Assembly (NCBI RefSeq): GCF_026571515.1
Contig: NW_026860638.1
Location: 62,001-126,000, forward strand
Origin: Ruditapes philippinarum
Lineage: Eukaryota
DNA length: 64,000 bases
Direction: 5' to 3'
The translations under genes and the position numbers were made by a program. Below the pieces are notes generated by a model. The model was not told the DNA's origin and did no database searches. It saw nothing but the letters and a program-made list of their open reading frames with translations. The first letter of the stretch is position 1; the number at the start of each line of letters is the position of its first letter. Positions 13,473-60,224 of the stretch are shown here, piece by piece.

Positions 13473-16400
13473 AATGGATAATTTACCCCTGCTTTTCCGA
13501 AATTCGATGTTTTTGCTGATGAAAAATTCTCTGGGAAGTACGATGGGAAAAGTATTTGGATAAATTAGAAAACTTATTTGTTGGACTGGTATAAACACCA
13601 TCTAGAAAACGAAGAAGGAAAAAGCACTTTACTTCTTTTTGCGGGAGTGATGTTTACGATATCTAGTTTACATTAAATTTAAAGAGAAGGAAATTTTGAA
13701 ACTACAAAAGAACAAAATTTGGGAAAATTAACAGCATATTTTTAAGCAAGAAAAAACACAAAATTTTAAAAAATTTTCAAAAATTTTAATTTTAAAGAAA
13801 TTGCATGGGGGGAATCTATCGACCATTTTACAACAAAAATTTACCCCCAGAAAGCGGGAATTGGAATTTTGGACATTGACTAGAAATTAAAAGCCAAAAT
13901 TATACAGGGTTTTTACAAAACATGGAATGCAGTTTTTAAAAGGACCCGGGAAATAGTCATTTAAATTTGACTTACTTAAAAAAAATGAAAACCAGGGAAA
14001 AAATTTAAAAAACCTTCAAGCAGCAAATATGTCAAAGGATACCAAGTAGTCAGCAAGTAGTGCGGGTAAAAAGCAATCCTCGATTTAGCCGTCAATCAAA
14101 GGGATTCGCCACCTAAACGTTATTCAGCAACGTTCATATCAAAACTATCCCAGAGAAGCAAGTTTGTCGTCGGGAAGGCGAAACTACCCTCCAGAACGAA
14201 ATAAAAAATGCCGAAATTGTGGAGGAAGGTATTCCCATATGTCACGTTGTCCTGCTATCCGGAGCGGAATGTAATTACTGTCATAAGAAGAATCTTTTAT
14301 ATCGGTCTTGCAGAAAACGTCAAAAAAGTGTGAAGTTAATCGGATGATGAAACAGTCGGATTCACAAAGTTTTATCAGGAGGCAAGCACGTCGAGTGTTA
14401 GTTCAAATGAGTTGCCGATGTTTTATTTGGATTTAAAAATATCAGATGGAAAAAAAGTGCCAAATAAATGCATTAAATTAAATGGATGTAGATGTTTATG
14501 TTTGATAGATAGCGGTTCATCTTTTAAATATTATTAGCGAAATAGGACCTCGAGAAAATGAAAATCCGTCCAGAAAATCAAAAAACGGAAACAAAAGGCA
14601 TTCGCATTCGGGCAGAAATTCCACTTTCCATTCATAGGCAAATGTTCCCTGCTTGTGGAGTCGGACTCAAAAATTTTATGACAAAAGTTTCCATATCGTT
14701 AAAGGTACAAAAAATCATTGATCAGTTATGAATTATCGGTAGAGCTCGGGATTTTTACCGCAATACAATTAGTTCAAAAATCAGTTCAAAGCAAAGACGA
14801 CATATTCAGGACTTATTGAAGAATATTCTCAAGTTTTTCACAGGCTTAGGATGTCTGAAAGACAGAAAAGTTAAGTTTCATATTGATGAAAGTGTTGTAC
14901 CTGTAGCTCAACCGGCTAGGAGAGTTCCATTTTCATGTACGTTCGCAAGTCGAAAAGGAACTGAAAAAAGTTTAGAGGAAATGGATGTTCTTGAAAAGGT
15001 TATAGGTTTACCGACACCATGGGTTTTCGAACTTAGTAGCGGCTCCGAAACCTAATGCTCCGCATGAAGTGAGAGTGTGCGTAGATATGAGAAAAGCTAA
15101 CACCGCAATCAAAACAGAGAAAAATGTTTGCCCGACGGTAGATGATATCATCTTGACGTTAAACGGGCGCAACTGTATTTTCACGTCTAGATCTGTACAA
15201 AGCTTTCCATCAAATTGAATTGGATGAAGCATCACGTGTAATGACAACGTTTCAGACACATATTGGACTGTTTAGGTATAAACGTCTAAATTTCGGGGTG
15301 TCCGCAGCACCGATAATTTTCCAAAATGAGCTTCGTCAAGCACTTCAAGGTCTTAAAGGCATATTGAATATTTGCCGACGACATCGTATGTTTTGGTAAG
15401 ACACATGAGGAACACGACGCAAATCTTCGCGCTTTACTGCAACGTCTACAAGATAGAAAACCTCACACTGAACAGCAAAAAATGTTCATTCGGAAAATCT
15501 AAAATCAAGTTCTACGGATACGTATTTTTTCCGAATCCGGAATTTCACCCGATCCTGACAAAGTAAATGCAGTGAAAAATATGGACAGACCAAAATCAAT
15601 ATCCGAAATCCGTTCATTTCTGGGTCTCGCGAAAACTATTTGTCTAAGTTCATAGATGGCTATTCAAGCTTAACAGAACCATTAAGACGACTTACACATA
15701 AAGGTGTAAAATTTGAATGGACTGCCCGACCAAGAAAAAATCGTTCACATCATTAAAAGATACCTTAATTAGTGATAAGGTCATGACTATTTCGATTCCT
15801 AGAAAGGAAACTGAACTCTGGGTCGACGGAAGTCCAGTTGGAATGCTCAGGAATACTTATTCAAAACGGCAAAATAGTATCATATGGAAGCAAAAGCATA
15901 CAATTCGGTTCAGACGCGATATTCTCAAACAGAAAGAGAAGCTTTGAGTGCTGTCATCATGATTCAGCATTTCCATTTGTATTTATTCGGCAAGAAAATT
16001 TAAACTGATAACAGATCATGCTGCACTTCAATCAATCTTCAACAATATCAAGACAATACAGTCACCAAGATTAGAACGTTTGGCGTTTGAAGTTGACAAC
16101 GTATGATTTTCAGACAGTTTTATAGACCAGGTAAAATGATGATATCAGATTATCTTTCCAGGCATCCACATGCAAGACACGAAACAAATACAGTAGCCGA
16201 GCAGTATATCACTTTATTACTGATAACGCTTTGCCAGATGCATTGAAGCTGTCAGATGTAGCAAAAGCTACCGAAACGGACTGTATATTAAGCTGTGTAA
16301 GAAATGCGTTAGAACAAAATGACTGGAAAACTCAAAAAATGCAAATTAGATGAAAAATTTTCGGTTATTACGAGAATTTGAAATAAAAATCAAGAACTTG

Positions 16401-17516
16401 CAGTTGCATATACGGGAAGATGGATTTGTGCTTTTACGGGGTACAAAACTTTGCATACCAGGAAGTCTGCAAAAACAAACTGTTATGCTTTCGCATGAAG
16501 GTCACCAAGGCCAATCAAAATGCAAAGGATTATTACGTGAGTATTGCTGGTTTCCACATATGGATAGAATGGTAGACGAAATGTGTAGATCATGCATTGT
16601 ATGCCAAGCCTGCATCAAAAAGAATTATTCCAGACCCGATCAAATCACATCACTACCACGAGATGTGTTTTCTGAAGTCAGTTGTGACTTTTTGTGGTCC
16701 TTTTCCAGACGGTTACATGTTACTAGTTGTTATATTTGTGACTACAGTAGATTTCCAGTAGTTGAAAGAATCAAATCGACAGCCGCAGATACAGTCATAC
16801 GCGATTAGAGGCGATATTTTCGATATTCGGATATCCAGAGGTAGTGAAAACGGACAATGGACCTCCGTTTCAAAGTCGCGCATTCAGAGAATTTGCTGAT
16901 AATTCGGGGATTCAAACATAAACGAATCACTCCATTGCACCCACAGGCAAATGGAATAGTTGAGAGATTTATGGCGCCACTGCAAAAAGCAACTTAAAAC
17001 AGCGATAGCGTCTAGACAAGATTATAAAAGAGCGTTAAGTAGATATCTTATGAATTTTCGGAACACACCACAAACAACTACACAAACAGCTCCTAGTGAA
17101 TTAATGTTCAATCGTAAATTAAAGACAAAATTACCAAAGATGACATTTGACAACCAAGACACAAATATTCGAGACAGGGACAGTCTATCAAAAACGAAAA
17201 ACAAAATCTACGCTGATAAGAAACGTCGAGCTCAGCCAAATAATTTTGAAAACTGGGAGATGTGTGTTATTAAAACGGGAACAACGGAAATAAGTTTGAA
17301 ACAGCTTTTGACCCTACCCCCGGGATAATCATCGCTATGAAAGGATCTATGCTTACAATCAAACATAAAGGAAAAGAAATCACACGGGACGTTTCCAAAT
17401 TTAGATATGTTCATGGAAATCAAGAGCCGGTGCAGACGAAACCTGCAGATAATACATCTTTACCTAGAAATAGGCCGCAGAGGAAACGCCGACCGCCGAG
17501 ACGTTATGAAGATTAA
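13473..17516 (+). pseudogene. gag-pol of the Gypsy element (many frameshifts, probably partly sequencing error)
   Basis: Gag CRNCG...H..CPA...CNYCHKKN (~14209-14310); protease LIDSGS (~14500); RT GLFRYKRLNFG and a frameshifted I-A-D-D (~15265-15385); RNaseH WVDGSP, YSQTEREAL; integrase HEGHQG...CIVC, KTDNGPPF, PQANGIVERF; C-terminal RPQRKRRPPRRYED-stop. Confidence 0.9.
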
Positions 17517-51419: not shown

Positions 51420-51621
51420 TACCAGTTTCGTACAGACACCCATCTCCTTAAATCCTGGCCTCCTCTTACCACCCTTTGATGGAAGGGCAGTGGCTTTTGT
51501 GGCAATCAAATATGTCACAGTCCATCCTATTTCTTAACATTTCTTTATGTTTATGTCGTCCGGCAGTATGAAGCAGGAAGAAGATTAAAATACGGCTCAT
51601 TTACCCCATTTATTCTCAACA
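51420..51621 (+). pseudogene. Duplicated intron segment of the metalloprotease gene
   Basis: Diverged match to 34690-34900 (accagt...cagacaccc...gaagggca...caatcaaat...ccggcagtatgaagcag...aaaatacggc). Confidence 0.6.
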
Positions 51622-52056
51622 CCCTTATATCGAGCTCGAAGGACAGGTCCTCAGGGCACAGCAACTGTTACCCTTATATCGAGATCGAAGGACAGGTTCT
51701 CAGGGCACAACAACTGTTACCCTTATATCGAGATCGAAGGACAGGTCCTCAGGGCACAGCAACTGTTACCCTTATATCGAGATCGAAGGACAGGTTCTCA
51801 GGGCACAACAACTGTTACCCTTATATCGAGATCGAAGGGCAGGTCCTCAGGGCACAGCAACTGTTACCCTTATATCGAGATCGAAGGACAGGTCCTCAGG
51901 GCACAGCAACTGTTACCCTTATATCGAGATCGAAGGACAGGTTCTCAGGGCACAACAACTGTTACCCTTATATCGAGATCGAAGGGCAGGTCCTCAGGGC
52001 ACAACAATTGTTACCCTTATATAGAGATCGAAGGACAGGTCCTCGGGGCACAGCAA
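51622..52056. repeat. Homogeneous 49-bp tandem array (~9 copies)
   Basis: cccttatatcgagatcgaaggacaggtcctcagggcacagcaactgtta. Confidence 0.95.
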
Positions 52057-52314
52057 GTATAACGGTAACTCGAGTATCTCTAAGTGTTGGTTTTGAAAAC
52101 CTTTGCTGGAGATACAGAAAAATTATTGGTAATAAGTTTTGCCTGCTCTTCATCAGGGATTATTTTAGTTCCCTTTCCTACTATATTTGAAGAACGCGCC
52201 AGAAATCAGAACCAACAGGTTACCAGCTCTATTAGTTTTTGATTTGCTGTCTTATTATGGTTCCCACGCTAACTGGCATTCGGAAAACCTTGCTGATTAC
52301 CATCATTCCTAATA

Positions 52315-52600
52315 TGGATTATTTTGTTTTAAAAATAACTTAATTATAAGATTGAATGAAGTTGACCTTTTCAGTGTTTTTTCATTAGTCGATTTTTGTT
52401 TATGGTTTACGTCAGCAATAAACATCTTTTTATTGGTCGCTTCTGTTTTTGGCGGTAGATTTACGTCAGCAATAAACATCTTTTTATTGGTCGCTTCTGT
52501 TTTTGGCGGTAAATATTTTTGACCATTTGTTTCCTGGGCCTTTTTGTCATTCTGTATTTCGTCGACTTAGAGATCACATGTTTTGATAATTAAAAAATTT
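52315..52600 (+). repeat. Split direct repeat A1
   Basis: Near-identical to 58558-58846; contains an internal ~54-bp duplication with cgtca and attgg (CCAAT) motifs. Confidence 0.92.
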
Positions 52601-52650
52601 TTTGATATTTTATACAGAATTTGTTCAACTAAGTTGAGGAATTTTATTTA

Positions 52651-52970
52651 ATTTATAGACTGGTATAATTATCAGTCAGTTAAAAAATTTTTTACTTACT
52701 AGAGAGGATTTTGGAAACATTTTACGTTTTGTGATAAAACAAAACGTGTAAATTATTTTGCACGTGTGAACTTTTTCAAGGACATAAGACAGTGTTAGAG
52801 ATTATGTCAGAACCGGATTTATAGACTGGTATTTTTATCGGTCAGTTGAAAAATATTACTTAACCGGGAGGATTTTGGATACATTTACGTTTTGTGATAA
52901 AACAAACCGTGCACTTAATTTTGCACGTGTGAACTTTTTCAAAGACAGTAGACAGTGTTAGAGGTTATGT
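52651..52970 (+). repeat. ~165-bp tandem duplication in the Ngaro 5' UTR
   Basis: atttatagactggtat...gacagtgttagag(a/g)ttatgtc occurs twice. Confidence 0.85.
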
Positions 52971-54262
52971 CTTCCAATGAGAAAGGGGAACATGTTCAAA
53001 AGAAGTCCTTGCCACAGAGAGGGAAAAGGATCGACTATAAATTGCTCAACGAGGGTGTCGGAGATGAGATAGAAGAATCCTTCTGGACACAAGGGCACGT
53101 AACTGATCTCAAATTATTGGTTGGAGATTCAGCGGAAGCGGAAGTAATAACCAAACATGAAGACGAAGGGAATTCGGATATACAAGATGCGGAGGGTGCA
53201 ATAGGCCCGGATATTCTTGAGATGAAAAAGGAGTTACAAGCTCTGCATGAAGAAGAAAGACAATTGAAAGAACAGATGTCCGAGGCAGAGATGTTAAGGA
53301 GACAAATTGCCCAGAAAAAAGATGATGTTCAGAAATTAAGAGGTGAGGCAATTCAGTCAACAAAATCGCGGAAAAAAAGTAACTTTAGTAAAAAATCATC
53401 TGTTCAAAATGATACAAATGTTGATCAACTTACTATTAATGATTTACGAAAGAACAAAAAATTACGACGTAAGGCTAAATCACAGTTGCACAAGATTGGT
53501 TTAGATATTTTTAGTTCTACTTCCGAGTCAGATTCTGACTCTGATTGCAATGCAAGCTCTGTAATTGATTCAACAAAAGTACTTAAAAGTAGTAAGAAAA
53601 AGATAAATGATTTGAGTTCTGCAGAAGATTCTGAGCAGGAATTTGATTCCAATTATTCCTGTAAAAATAAAACAAAGTCCGGTATTTTGGCTAAAGCTGG
53701 GGATAGGGTTGTAAATAGACAGCATTATCCGCAGTCAAGTCTTAGATTTGAATATGTAACTGGTTCAATCACATTTGATAAATTGGATATAAATTTGTTT
53801 GTTGCGGGGGAATTAGAAGTTATTTCCAATCCCTCTATTCATACTTTAGAGCGTAAAGCTAGAATTGAACTGTTAAAGAAATTGATGTATCTTTGTTCAT
53901 CTTATGACTTTTCTATTGTTAAAAGTTTTTATGCCGCTGTATTAAGGGAGATAGAATTGGGTCATCTCCAGTGGGGAGACTCTTATCAATATGTTGAGTC
54001 AGCAATTTTGACAAGTCATGTTATCAAGAAAGGTGTAAATGTAAAGCACAGAGCTGAAAAAAGCAGATCAGATATTGTTGATAAGATTTGGTTTTGTAGT
54101 CAGTACCAAAGAAATAAATGTAATCATAAATCTCCTCATATGACTGTTATAAAAGGTGTTGCTAGATTGTCTCAGCATGTTTGCGCTTCATGCTGGCTGA
54201 AAGACAAAGTTAAATTAGAGCATCCTGAGTGTTCAAGCTCATGTCCTTATTCGTCAAATTGA
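52967..54262 (+). CDS. Ngaro ORF1 Gag-like protein
   Basis: ATG at 52967; coiled coil (ILEMKKELQALHEEERQLKEQ...QKLR), Ser/acidic linker, C-terminal WFCxxYQxxxC...H and HxCxxC...H...CP zinc fingers. Confidence 0.88.
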   Translation: MSSNEKGEHVQKKSLPQRGKRIDYKLLNEGVGDEIEESFWTQGHVTDLKLLVGDSAEAEVITKHEDEGNSDIQDAEGAIGPDILEMKKELQALHEEERQLKEQMSEAEMLRRQIAQKKDDVQKLRGEAIQSTKSRKKSNFSKKSSVQNDTNVDQLTINDLRKNKKLRRKAKSQLHKIGLDIFSSTSESDSDSDCNASSVIDSTKVLKSSKKKINDLSSAEDSEQEFDSNYSCKNKTKSGILAKAGDRVVNRQHYPQSSLRFEYVTGSITFDKLDINLFVAGELEVISNPSIHTLERKARIELLKKLMYLCSSYDFSIVKSFYAAVLREIELGHLQWGDSYQYVESAILTSHVIKKGVNVKHRAEKSRSDIVDKIWFCSQYQRNKCNHKSPHMTVIKGVARLSQHVCASCWLKDKVKLEHPECSSSCPYSSN

Positions 54263-56146
54263 CTGAAAGATAAGTATGATGATTTAAAGAAAAAAGTAAA
54301 GTGTCATGAAAAAACTGTTGATTTATTTCTTCCGAAATATTGTAAAAAAGATAAGATTGAAAATAGTGTAGAATCTTTGAGAATTAATGCTATTTGCAAT
54401 CATTCAGTAAAATGTAATATTTGTAAAGTCACGAAGAAAAGTCAAAAATCTATTTTAGACAGAGTAGTTATTCATGAAAAAATCCGTCAATCTGGTTTGT
54501 ATAATTATGAGGGTTGTAGAATACAGGTTTACAATAATATCAATACTGATTTCATGAGGCGTATGTTGGGTTCAAACTATAATGATTTAATAGTTTGTGA
54601 TCTTTTAAAATATGGTTTTCCCATTGGTTTATTAGAGAAAGGCTTTCATTTTGATCAACTTGATACATGGAAATATAGGAACCATTCCGGGGCTAATGAT
54701 TATCCAGATGAGATTAATAAATATCTGGGTAAGGAAAGTAATTCTTCTTGCATTTTAGGTCCATTTAAGAGCAATCCCTTTACTTCAGGGTTGAAAATTT
54801 CTCCATTAAATTCTGTTCCCAAAAAAGATACTGATGAAAGAAGGATTATTTTAGACTTAAGTATGCCAAAAGGTAATGCTGTAAATGATTTCATTGATAA
54901 AGATATATATTTAAATGAGCATGTTGATTTGGTATTTCCTAGAATAGATGATTTTGTTCAATTGGTTAAATCTAAAGGTCAAGGATGTCTAATGTTTAAA
55001 AAAGATTTGCGTAAAGCTTACAGACAGATAAGTATTTGTCCAAGTAATTATAATTTAGTTGCCTTTTGTTGGAAAAAGCACATATTTTGTGATACTGTGT
55101 TGAGTATGGGCCTTAGATCTGCGGCTCAAATCTGTCAAAGAGTTACAAATGCTATAGCTTTTATTATGTATAATATTGGTATTTGTATACTTAATTATCT
55201 TGATGATCTAGCTGGAGTTGAAACAAGGCAAAATGCGCCTTTTGCATATAATTGTTTAGGTCAAGTCTTGAGGCATTGTGGTTTTATTGAGTCAGTTGAT
55301 AAAGCTTGTCCACCTTCAGAAATAATGATTTTTTTAGGGGTTCTTTTTAATACAAATTCAATGACTATGGAGGTTACTAAAGAACGTTTATTAGAAATAA
55401 AAAATTTAATTCAGGTATGGTTATACAAAACAGAAGCAACGCTTAGAGAAATACAATCACTTATTGGTAAATTAAATTTTGTGGCTTCATGTGTGCGGTC
55501 AAGCAGGATTTTTATAAGCCGGCTTATTAACTGGCTTAAAGATTTGTATAGTTATCTTCCACATATTTATGTTCCTATTACATCTGAGGTTAAAAAAGAC
55601 ATTCTTTGGTGGCATAAGTGTTTACAAGAATACAATGGAGTTTCTATTATGCTATATGAAAATTGGTCAATTCCAGATGCTATTTTCTCAACGGACGCGT
55701 GTTTAACAGGCTGTGGTGGTTTTTACAATGGAAAATATTTTCATTCTGATTTTCCTGTAAATATTTCTAATCAAAAATTTTCTATAGCCGTGTTAGAATT
55801 GTTCGGCATTATTCTTGCTTTAAGGCTTTGGTCAAAAGAATTTAAAGGTAAAAGGATAGTCGTTTATTGTGATAATGAGGCTGTATGCTTAGTCTTGAAT
55901 TCAGGCCGAGCCAGATGTTCAATGTTACAGGATGGTTTGAGAGAAATTTGTTTTTTAACAGCTAAATCTCAATGTGAGATAAGAGCTGTTCATTTGTCAA
56001 GTACGGAAAATCGAATCTCTGATTGTTTGTCTCGTTGGTCACAGCATGATAAATTCAAAGATGAATTTTTCCAGTTAACAACTGGATTTTATTTAGAGTA
56101 TTGTGAGGTGGTGGATCAAGATTTTGTTTTTATTAATGATTGGTAA
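54263..56146 (+). CDS. Ngaro RT/RNase H (in frame with ORF1, after a single TGA)
   Basis: RRIILDLS, KKDLRKAYRQ, LSMGLRSA, YLDD, FLGV; RNase H STDAC, ELFGI, YCDN, NRISDCLSR; the frame is open from 54263. Confidence 0.95.
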   Translation: MKDKYDDLKKKVKCHEKTVDLFLPKYCKKDKIENSVESLRINAICNHSVKCNICKVTKKSQKSILDRVVIHEKIRQSGLYNYEGCRIQVYNNINTDFMRRMLGSNYNDLIVCDLLKYGFPIGLLEKGFHFDQLDTWKYRNHSGANDYPDEINKYLGKESNSSCILGPFKSNPFTSGLKISPLNSVPKKDTDERRIILDLSMPKGNAVNDFIDKDIYLNEHVDLVFPRIDDFVQLVKSKGQGCLMFKKDLRKAYRQISICPSNYNLVAFCWKKHIFCDTVLSMGLRSAAQICQRVTNAIAFIMYNIGICILNYLDDLAGVETRQNAPFAYNCLGQVLRHCGFIESVDKACPPSEIMIFLGVLFNTNSMTMEVTKERLLEIKNLIQVWLYKTEATLREIQSLIGKLNFVASCVRSSRIFISRLINWLKDLYSYLPHIYVPITSEVKKDILWWHKCLQEYNGVSIMLYENWSIPDAIFSTDACLTGCGGFYNGKYFHSDFPVNISNQKFSIAVLELFGIILALRLWSKEFKGKRIVVYCDNEAVCLVLNSGRARCSMLQDGLREICFLTAKSQCEIRAVHLSSTENRISDCLSRWSQHDKFKDEFFQLTTGFYLEYCEVVDQDFVFINDW

Positions 56147-56172
56147 TTTTTCTTTTTCTGATTATTTTGTAG

Positions 56173-57141
56173 ATCTACAGTTGAAGACTCTCAAGTCTGA
56201 GTTGAAACTGTCAAATATTTCAGCATATGCTGAAGGTAGTAGAAAGAATTTAAAAATTCAGTGGGAATCATTTATTTTATTTTGTATTTATTTCAAATTT
56301 TGTTATTTACCGGCGAGTACAAACACTCTTCAATTATATTTCTCAATTTTTGAGTCGTTCTTTTAAATCAGTATCTAGTATTCGTAATTATTTAAGTGGG
56401 ATCAGAACTGTTCATCAGTTACTGGGATTTGATTTAAATGAAATGAACACTTTTCTGGTTAATTTTACACTTCGTGGCATTTCCAGATTGAAATGTCACT
56501 GTGTCAAACAAGCTGAACCTATAACTCCTTTCATACTTAACAAAATTTTTTTTGGCTTTAGACTTCAAAGACACTGAGAATTTGACTTATTGGTGTCTAT
56601 TTATATTTGCCTTTTTCTTACTTGCTCGCAAATCAAATTTGGTTCCTACCACTAGTAAAGATTTAATTAATCATAAGTGTTTACTTAGATCTGATGTTAC
56701 TCGTTTTCATGGTAATTTATTAGTTACTATGAATTGGTCAAAAACTATCCAGTTTGGCGAACGGCTTTTACAGACCCCTTTATTGAGATTAAGAGGTTCC
56801 CATTTATGTCCGGTTACAGCTTATGATAACATGTTAAAAAGGTACCTGGCGTTTCGTCAGATGCTTTATTTCTTTTACCTAATGGTAAACCTGTAACTTA
56901 TTATTTATTTCAAAATAAGTTACGTAATGTTTTGAATGATATTGGTTTAGATTCTTCCTTGTACTCTTCACATTTATTCAGACGTGGCTTTGCCACTCTT
57001 GCATTTAGGAATAATGTTAGTTCTGATGAAATTCAGATTCTTGGAGATTGGCATTCTGACGTTTATAAACGTTACATTTCACTTTCTATAGAGGATAAGT
57101 GTAAAATAATTAAAGATATTTCACATATATTTTATGTTTAA
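56173..57141 (+). CDS. Ngaro tyrosine recombinase (three frameshifts, at or near homopolymers)
   Basis: SAYAEGSRKNL, SIRNYLSGI, catalytic LLARKSNL, WSKTIQF, HLFRRG, GDW.SD..KRY. Confidence 0.9.
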
Positions 57142-57192
57142 AATTACAGGTGTAGTATGGCATTGTATTTATCAAAGTTTTTATGTTTTCAG

Positions 57193-57729
57193 AACATGTA
57201 AATCAACCACCATTGCGCAAGTGTACAATAGTCTCCGACTCCATAGCGAAAAATGTTTCTTGAATTTGGGATACCAAAATTACAGCTTTTCCAGGGATTA
57301 ATATTTCAAGATTAAGTTATAGAATTTCTCAAGGGTCAGGTAGATTTAAGATCTTCATTCATTATTTTACATGTGGGCACCAATGATGTTACTGGTCCCC
57401 GTTCAGAGGATGAGATTATTTCATCCTTTAATGATTTGATATCTAACATTCGACTTCAATCTACTGGTAGTATTATTGTATCTGCTATTATTCCTCGACC
57501 AATTGATTTTGAGTCCACTGGTGAGAGAGTTAAACATTTAAATAATAAGTTAGGTTTATTATGCAAGTCAAGAAAGGTTTCATTTATGAGAACCTTCAAG
57601 TCGTTTCTTAAATGCGGTTTGCCACGTCGTGAATATTATGCCATTAAGGATGGGGGTTTACATTTAAATCTTGAAGGGACCCGGTGTTTAAAAGAATTCT
57701 TTATAAATACTATTGCGCACTTGAAATAA
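57193..57729 (+). CDS. Ngaro SGNH/GDSL hydrolase (one in-frame TGA at 57261 and one frameshift near 57333)
   Basis: Block I IVSDSIAK, block II AFPG, block III LHVGTND, SAIIPRP, block V DGGLHLN..G. Confidence 0.88.
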
Positions 57730-58284: not shown

Positions 58285-58354
58285 TGTTCATAGTTTGTTA
58301 AGTGTATTTATATGCTCTTGCTTATTTGTTTGTTATTTTTGACCGTGGGTATGG

Positions 58355-58557
58355 CTTTATGGTAAATATTACTCTTGTAGTAATCATTATGATCACAATT
58401 AGACGTTCAAACAAGTTATGATGTGAGTTATAATGTCTTATATATGTGAATGTTATGTATTAATTTGATTCATGTGATCTCTTCAATTGCCTAAAAAATA
58501 TATATTCATATGAACAGAAATTTTCTTTGTTATTTTTCTGATTGAAAACTGATAATT
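58355..58557 (+). repeat. Split direct repeat B1
   Basis: ctttatggtaaatattactc...gattgaaaactgataattt; matches 58942-59228 apart from an ~80-bp indel. Confidence 0.9.
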
Positions 58558-58846
58558 TGGATTATTTTTGTTTTTAAAAAATAACTTATTATAAGATTGA
58601 ATGAATTGACCTTTTCAGTGTTTTTTTCATTAGTCGATTTTTGTTTATGGTTTACGTCAGCAATAAACATTTTTTTATTGGTCGCTTCTTTTTTTGGGGT
58701 AGATTTACGTCAGCAATAAACATCTTTTTATTGGTCGCTTCTGTTTTTGGCGGTAAATATTTTTTGACCATTTGTTTCCTGGGCCTTTTTGTCATTCTGT
58801 ATTTCGTCGACTTAGAGATCACATTTTTTGATAATTAAAAAATTTT
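58558..58846 (+). repeat. Split direct repeat A2
   Basis: Copy of A1 directly abutting B1. Confidence 0.92.
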
Positions 58847-58941
58847 CCCACCCTTCCCTCCCAATTAATATGTTGATGGTTAATATTATATTATATATTA
58901 TATTGCTTAATATATGTATTTTATTAAAATTTAGATATTGC

Positions 58942-59228
58942 CTTTATGGTAAATATTACTCTTGTAGTAATCATTATGCTCACAAATAGACATTCAAACA
59001 AGTTATGATGTGAGTTATAAATGTTTTAAATGCATAATATAAGTGTGTTCTCATACAATGTTTGTATGAATTTGTCTTTGATCACTTGTATATGAAATAG
59101 ATGACTTATATATGTGGTGAATGTTATGTATTAATTTGATTCATGTGATCTCTCAATTGCCTAAAAATATATATTCATATGACAGAAATTTTCTTTTGTT
59201 ATTTTTTCTGATTGAAAACTGATAATTT
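58942..59228 (+). repeat. Split direct repeat B2
   Basis: Copy of B1 forming the element's right end. Confidence 0.9.
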
Positions 59229-59439
59229 CAAGTTTCGCGAAAGTAAATTTTCCAAAATGGGAATCTAAGCGCGTTCAAGATGGTTTTATGAAAACGATCA
59301 TAATAATTATGCATAGTCTATGGAAGAACTTAAGATAAAGTACTGGTAAAATAATAACCTTTGTAACGCAACGCCGGGTCAATATCAACTTCCGGAAGAA
59401 TACCGTTTCACGATATCCTTTTCCCAAAATGTAATTATT

Positions 59440-60224
59440 TCATTTTCTGTCTTTTTCTTGGAACACGTTTTTGTAAGTGGTATATGTTCGGATTCAAAGA
59501 GTACATCAGTAGTGGTAGAGCACGGAGCTTACACATCATCTGGCATAGGCACGCATGAACTTGGACATATTCCATGCAAAATTCAATCCGCGAGCAAAAA
59601 CAAGATTGTTATACCAAAAACGTCATTGTTACTATAAATAACTTTGTATTCTTCATGATTTTAACAATAATAATAATACTTTCTTTAACGAGTGAACTCA
59701 TTTAAGCAATATATCAAATTTCCAACGAGACCGTCAAAATGAATTATATAAATTTAACATATTCAAGCTATTAGATAACATTAATGTACATTAGTATACA
59801 CGAATTTTGGTTTCAAAATGATTTAAGATATAGCAGTCTTGATATAATCAGGAAGGCCATTCGAAACAAAATACTAACGAAATTGTTCAGTACTTGTTTT
59901 AGGGATGTAAAGTTGATAGCATGAACAGTGATATACAATATTAGCTGGGTAGCATTGACTTTGCACGAGATCCGGGATAGGCAAAATATTCTTTTTATGA
60001 TATAACGAATGTTTATCACTTAAATTGTGCTTAAAATAAGGTCTAACATAATTATATTGTGTTTTTATTCTCAATCTATATTTAGTTTCGGCGTATACTG
60101 GCACGATTGAGAGGGAACTGCAAAATTAAGGGGTTCGACATGCAACGCTTCTCTGAATTATATTATGATCTCCGCTTCGTACTTCATTGAGATACAGTTT
60201 CACGTTTTCCGCATGTTCCACACT
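59440..60224 (+). pseudogene. Decayed duplicate of the metalloprotease active-site exons
   Basis: 59461-59568 is a near copy of the HELGH exon but has lost its acceptor AG and donor; 60086-60224 is a copy of the VYWHD exon with a cac-gat-TGA stop and a deletion. Confidence 0.88.

Follow-up and report, generated by a model that had tools for sequence, protein, structure and literature searches.

In a 64,000-nucleotide stretch of Ruditapes philippinarum DNA (assembly GCF_026571515.1, contig NW_026860638.1, positions 62,001 to 126,000 of the forward strand; hereafter the window), the gag-like and pol reading frames of a retrotransposon lie in one frame and are separated by a single stop, TGA-CTG, and it is likely (probability about 0.8) that programmed readthrough of this UGA-C yields a fusion of Gag with reverse transcriptase (RT) plus RNase H (RH). 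By repeat layout and domain content, the tree containing no named Ngaro references, the element is assigned to the hydrolase-bearing type of Ngaro tyrosine-recombinase (YR) retrotransposons, order DIRS. The common frame, the UGA, the C at position +4 and their conservation are directly observed, as is the lack of a conserved start or splice acceptor at pol. Readthrough, which the initial annotation had proposed as probable from the DNA, gains support from the frame, TGA and +4 C that homologues conserve.

Organisation of the gag-pol junction

The junction comprises the following features, given in positions of the window.

52967..54262, + strand: open reading frame (ORF) 1, Gag-like, 431 aa, with its ATG at 52967 and ending in TGA
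54095..54244, + strand: C-terminal Cys/His cluster of Gag, conserved and likely to bind zinc
54260..54265, + strand: gag stop with its context, TGA-CTG, the candidate readthrough site
54263..56146, + strand: ORF2, RT and RNase H, 627 codons from stop to stop, up to the TAA at 56144-56146
54263..54553, + strand: 97 open codons without ATG, carrying conserved F[LF]P, CxHxxxCxxC and H..V..SG..N motifs

ORF1 closes with CPYSSN before the TGA at 54260-54262, and the same frame runs on as CTG AAA GAT. The arrangement first reported for this DNA, a lone TGA-CTG between gag and pol ORFs that share a frame, is confirmed, with 627 codons open after the stop. The accompanying description of 38 open codons and a distant ATG was correct as to the ATG, the first in-frame one being codon 98 (54554), preceded by seven out-of-frame ATGs, but not as to the count, since 38 codons reach only a TTG at 54377, a start of bacterial type, and the true number is 97. 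Base shuffling of these 97 codons gave no stop-free outcome in 20000 attempts. ORF2 matches RVT_1 in Pfam at 1e-7, with weak matches to RVT_3 and RT_RNaseH. ORF1 has no Pfam match and is named gag from its position and Cys/His cluster only, the invariant residues of this cluster in alignment A2 (15 sequences) being C146, C154, H160, H173, C175, C178, H188 and C195.

The N-terminal region of pol is predicted to be folded: in residues 41-100 the mean predicted local distance difference test score (pLDDT) is 83-95 per block of ten, indicating a confident fold, and C45, H47, C51, C54, H71 and N81 are invariant or nearly so. The CxHxxxCxxC motif (pol codons 45-54, 54395-54424) is nearly invariant in closer relatives and lost in more distant ones, and possibly forms a small zinc site in the linker between Gag and RT. 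The predicted pol fold aligns with human immunodeficiency virus 1 (HIV-1) RT at Z 16.1 (416 aligned residues, root-mean-square deviation 13.6) and with Moloney murine leukaemia virus (MMLV) RT at Z 16.0 (312 aligned residues, deviation 4.7).

Conservation of the stop and its context

Within the family, contigs spanning the junction show no difference at TGA-CTG in 4/4 runs from 4 studies, one of these runs possibly being the source of the window itself. The contig records carry 2, 0, 1 and 2 other letters, at 54293, 54418 and 54530 among the differences listed. A second, diverged family is present in 3/4 runs; it aligns as far as 54264 (the stop not being read directly), diverges over 223 nt at equal length and then rejoins, and TGA CTT was read directly in one loose contig end in X5. 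A sense codon in other copies, which the initial annotation had named as the sign of a private lesion, was not seen, the TGA being kept in 4/4 runs, and the TGA is neither a private mutation nor an assembly error.

To follow the junction beyond the family, a pol profile built from 52 proteins was used to retrieve 57 metagenome and 5 genome-bin loci, giving 63 with the window, and junctions were counted in the 40/63 loci with a gag C-terminus, the other 23, without a gag C-terminal match, being excluded. Gag ends in TGA in 36/40 loci, with C at +4 every time, and all 24 loci in which the frame is open from the gag stop into RT have TGA-C. After clustering, TGA-C stands at the gag end in 28/32 clusters and in 21/21 of those open into RT. 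Twenty of these 21 open-frame clusters share 36-66% identity in RT (median 46), as derived from a quick tree of 36/40 rows (4 dropped for short coverage) that holds only the loci fetched here. Differing gag and pol frames in homologues, which would have spoken against readthrough, are not what the relatives show; one frame is kept across the TGA-C. The gag tail after the last Cys varies from 3 to 20 aa and the spacer from the stop to the xGxP motif from 64 to 221 codons, with the frame maintained throughout. In a profile search that gave 2854 Gag relatives at E<=0.001, Gag ends at this place in 150/150 of the best, none with RT. No relatives were found among viral contigs.

Conservation is concentrated in the stop and the base that follows it. 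In the 28 TGA clusters, +4 is C in 28/28, +5 is T in 21/28 and +6 is free, and neighbouring positions are not conserved, apart from a Pro codon near the gag end. The TGA-CTR motif proposed at the outset holds as a conserved stop plus C, but its restriction to CUR does not. The exact hexanucleotides UGACUA or UGACGG occur in 8/21 open-frame clusters. As controls, among the stop triplets of these loci 7.4% are TGA-C, and TGA-C terminates 0/26 pol, 1/18 YR and 1/10 hydrolase ORFs, together 2/54. Directly after the stop stands a codon for Leu, Arg, Gln or Pro, in every case one that begins with C. Leu is CTN in 16/16 and Arg is CGN in 4/4, where CTN overall accounts for 14-73% of pol Leu codons and these elements mostly use TTR and AGR; selection therefore acts on the nucleotide.

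Five of the retrieved loci, L058-L062, and the proteins P0038, P0083, P0092 and P0097 sit in bacterial genome bins labelled Sedimenticola, Parabeggiatoa and Thiodiazotropha; being eukaryotic retrotransposons, they are most probably misbinned host DNA.

Exceptions and points against readthrough

Several observations weigh against the readthrough interpretation. The open-frame set was chosen for openness; the frame is open in 21 of the 28 loci whose pol match is unbroken, leaving 7 in which it is not. The binomial tail of 1e-13 overstates the case because the loci share ancestry, and the pol-stop control is skewed towards T because the YR pyrimidine tract follows. No stimulatory RNA structure was found within 120-150 nt downstream, long-range pairing and pseudoknots being outside the scope of the search: downstream structure in the window has z of 0.42, -1.27 and -0.64, and the mean z of 21 loci is 0.10 against -0.17 for the control, for local pairing only. 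Folding of the window and of the 21 loci thus lends no support to the downstream stimulatory structure that had been suggested. Gag-Pol fusions through a sense codon number 0 in the best 150 of the 2854 Gag relatives, none of which exceeds 583 aa, and none was found among 442 candidates of 756-2155 aa, the latter being a weak test; this lack of natural fusions fits selection keeping the stop and does not in itself demonstrate readthrough. Alignment with solved RT folds begins only at about residue 90, residues 1-89 being barely probed by the fold search, and an in-frame ATG lies ahead of the xGxP motif in 19/21 clusters, so that the fold alone would also suit a pol-only protein. According to passages of PMC2194720, the gag-UGA-pol junction of Candida Tca2 was not read through in a yeast reporter, which urges caution in deducing a mechanism from layout.

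Two of the 7 loci that are not open are real exceptions and belong with these points: L015, with a gag stop of TAG-C and pol in another frame, and L039, with 30% identity, overlapping ORFs and a gag stop of TAA-C. Pol and gag overlap in another frame near 3167 in L015 and near 1063 in L039, which perhaps reflects another expression route, or damage.

The remaining departures are of other kinds. Of the other five loci that are not open, L019 is a circularly permuted contig that opens on the junction, L022-L024 are set apart from one another by indels in the linker, and L014 is frameshifted with a TGA-CTA upstream in the pol frame, so that the TGA-CAA counted for it is a chance downstream stop. 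L042 and L044, two of the four non-TGA clusters, carry frameshifts, and a TGA-CTA or TGA-CTT lies close by in a different frame.

Alternative explanations for the synthesis of pol

The alternative that survives best, although unlikely, is that pol is made separately at an in-frame ATG by reinitiation, a CUG start, an internal promoter or an internal entry site. An ATG lies 3-13 codons after the stop in 9/21 relatives, the RT fold begins near residue 90, close to the ATG at codon 98, and Tca2 has a minor promoter at its junction, as given in passages of PMC2194720. The first in-frame ATG, however, lies anywhere from codon 3 to codon 265 across clusters, so that no start is conserved. It falls after the F[LF]P motif in 7/14 and after SG..N in 7/21, and in L018 and L062 lies within RT itself (codons 265 and 223); in the window the seven out-of-frame ATGs come earlier. 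Separate synthesis also leaves the use of TGA over TAA or TAG, the +4 C and the unbroken frame unexplained. A CUG start as a general rule was rejected, as CTG follows the stop in only 5/21, and CTT, CTA, CGG, CAA, CGT and CTC are not starts.

It is less probable still that pol is translated from a spliced mRNA in which the conserved TGAC serves as a branch point. The tetranucleotide does match the core of the branch-point consensus, yUnAy, and clear splice signals serve the recombinase in the same elements. At pol, however, the acceptor threshold (the 10th-percentile score of a matrix trained on YR acceptors) is reached by only 2/21 junctions, at scattered places, compared with a phase-1 YAG at one aligned place in 29/38 loci for YR, and the best phase-1 site at the window junction scores -6.4. 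The base at -1 is a pyrimidine in only 15/28, the sequence downstream lacks a pyrimidine tract (25% in the window), and a branch point needs neither to coincide with the gag stop nor to preserve the pol frame. On the -1 base, the missing tract and the acceptor scores, the branch-point reading of TGAC was rejected.

Another form of recoding at the UGA, such as selenocysteine insertion, stop hopping or the action of remote RNA elements of the kind put forward for Tca2, would still produce a Gag-Pol fusion and is about as improbable as splicing. Every open-frame locus has UGA as its gag stop and no local structure was detected, both as such recoding would have it. These routes are opposed by a stop that is neither fixed nor aligned with Cys (the gag tails being of 3-20 aa) and by an Rfam scan of the element, which gave one chance-level match, mir-302 at E 0.92, and no SECIS; the invariant +4 C is, moreover, what near-cognate readthrough predicts.

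The view that gag-pol was once a continuous ORF and acquired the TGA through a private nonsense mutation or a sequencing error, to which the damage elsewhere in the window copy (YR in four pieces) might point, is refuted by the same stop in 4/4 runs and 36/40 loci and by Gag ending here in 150/150 best relatives, the longest of 583 aa, and has next to no probability.

Proposed expression of the element

Under UGA-C readthrough, the full-length element RNA would be translated from the gag ATG and most ribosomes would terminate at the UGA, releasing Gag. A minority would insert an amino acid at the UGA by means of a near-cognate tRNA, aided by the following C, mostly as CU, to give a Gag-RT/RH product of about 1059 residues. 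The signal would apparently consist of the short context alone. Readthrough would keep RT scarce relative to Gag and tied to it, perhaps at the fixed ratio that the initial annotation proposed, and since no protease domain is found in the element by Pfam, the Gag-RT fusion may remain uncleaved. For the recombinase and hydrolase, a donor inside gag would be spliced to acceptors ahead of their ORFs, bypassing the stop and pol. The signals concerned are as follows.

53340..53348, + strand: candidate phase-1 splice donor within gag (exon end 53342)
56150..56172, + strand: candidate 3' splice acceptor ahead of the recombinase, a pyrimidine tract followed by TAG, phase 1

The recombinase ORF lacks its own start. 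Ahead of it lies a strongly conserved candidate acceptor, a pyrimidine tract followed by a phase-1 YAG, at one aligned place in 29/38 loci and within 6 nt in 36/38. The evidence for the donor is weaker: a phase-1 GAG|GT[AG] is at the same aligned place in the window, L001 and L002 (3/18 gag ORFs) and lies 41-86 codons downstream in another 8 of the 18. The recombinase is probably made by splicing from the gag donor, skipping the stop and pol, and the hydrolase, before which a candidate phase-1 acceptor ending at 57192 scores 11.2, is probably likewise made from a spliced RNA with the gag donor. More tentatively, and with slightly greater doubt than confidence, a wide lineage of animal Ngaro elements may derive all its proteins from one transcript under a programme so far unreported: termination would release Gag, UGA-C readthrough without RNA structure would give Gag-RT/RNase H, and alternative 3' splicing from a single gag donor would join the Gag N-terminus to YR or hydrolase.

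Identity and state of the window copy

Outside gag and pol, the element contains the following features.

52310..52601, + strand: 5' split direct repeat A1, 96% identical to 58553-58846 (repeat families D3, D5)
56172..57141, + strand: tyrosine recombinase in four pieces in differing frames (Pfam Phage_integrase, 2.7e-5)
57170..57729, + strand: SGNH hydrolase ORF, interrupted (Lipase_GDSL_2, 2.6e-9 on 57316-57726)
58352..59228, + strand: 3' split direct repeats B1 (58352-58558), A2 (58553-58846) and B2 (58939-59228)

Passages of PMC9210276 define the Ngaro layout by split repeats, gag, RT/RH and YR, with hydrolase in some members and no methyltransferase. The repeat order of the window element, A1-ORFs-B1-A2-B2, is that of Ngaro split direct repeats, and its ORF order is gag-like, RT/RNase H and then tyrosine recombinase, though the YR is broken here. 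An SGNH hydrolase after YR, a trait of some Ngaro members, is present here and also in 11/62 loci. No methyltransferase was found after RNase H (Pfam at E<=0.1 gave RT and RH only), and pol stops 35 aa past the RH match. Named protein relatives come from Mytilus and Mercenaria. The four tblastn pieces of the recombinase match a 330-aa ORF of L001 and the hydrolase ORF has a stop in its 5' part; with the recombinase in four pieces and the hydrolase interrupted, the window copy is not autonomous. Neither a second copy of the element nor a tRNA gene was found within the 64-kb window.

Directly upstream of the element, 49-nt units form a tandem array at 51523-52110, and in the leader (52651-52971) a unit of about 165 nt occurs twice, in copies 86% alike, of which the second runs as far as the gag ATG. 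A short ORF at 59350-59637 (+) carries a HELGH motif, of the zinc metalloprotease type, and is possibly a host exon adjoining the element. Further away, a 152-codon ORF at 16350-16808 (+) resembles, by eye, a pol fragment of a long terminal repeat (LTR) retrotransposon.

Relation to known systems and significance

The junction shares features with several known systems. Passages of PMC13517186 give UGACUA and UGACGG as the type II readthrough contexts of alphaviruses and coltivirus; the likeness is a UGA followed by C, whereas the window has UGACUG in place of the exact hexanucleotide, shows no downstream stem-loop within 120-150 nt, and belongs to a group in which +6 is free. The fission-yeast Ty3/Gypsy elements Tj1, Tcry1 and Tosmo1-3 have an in-frame gag-TGA-CTA/CTG-pol that the authors read as programmed readthrough, the stop being reported as essential in Tj1 (passages of bioRxiv 2022.12.06.519325). 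They share the in-frame gag-TGA-CTR-pol arrangement but differ in having LTRs, a protease and a DDE integrase, and in a conserved GAA before the stop, where the window has AAT and its relatives vary. The gammaretrovirus murine leukaemia virus (MuLV) likewise has Gag and Pol in a single frame with a stop between them, crossed by gag-UAG-pol readthrough according to passages of PMC13517186, but uses UAG with a pseudoknot. Tca2 resembles the window in its in-frame gag-UGA-pol and differs in that its local context is inactive in yeast. Ngaro elements have the same repeat order and gene set, and how their pol is translated is not stated in the passages found.

Gag-pol readthrough in YR elements is not reported in the main-text passages taken from bioRxiv 2021.04.08.439009, PMC9210276, PMC2632668, PMC6681497, PMC7192593, PMC8547959, PMC13517186, PMC2194720, PMC3783388, PMC3266345, PMC12440569, PMC5009743, PMC10294476 and bioRxiv 2022.12.06.519325, which describe the ORFs of YR retrotransposons and not the translation of RT. 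The mechanism is known from gammaretroviruses and fission-yeast Ty3 elements, and a report of it in this retroelement order was not found in those passages; the chance that the in-frame stop has already been noted in older Ngaro literature or supplements is about one in three. For annotation, the stop should not be scored as damage, nor pol started at an internal ATG. The relatives supply dozens of natural UGA-C contexts for work on recoding, and a four-base signal kept at 36-66% RT identity offers a direct test of how the Gag:RT ratio is set in protease-less retroelements. Readthrough here would make this a third group of retroelements to use it at the gag-pol junction, next to retroviruses and LTR elements.

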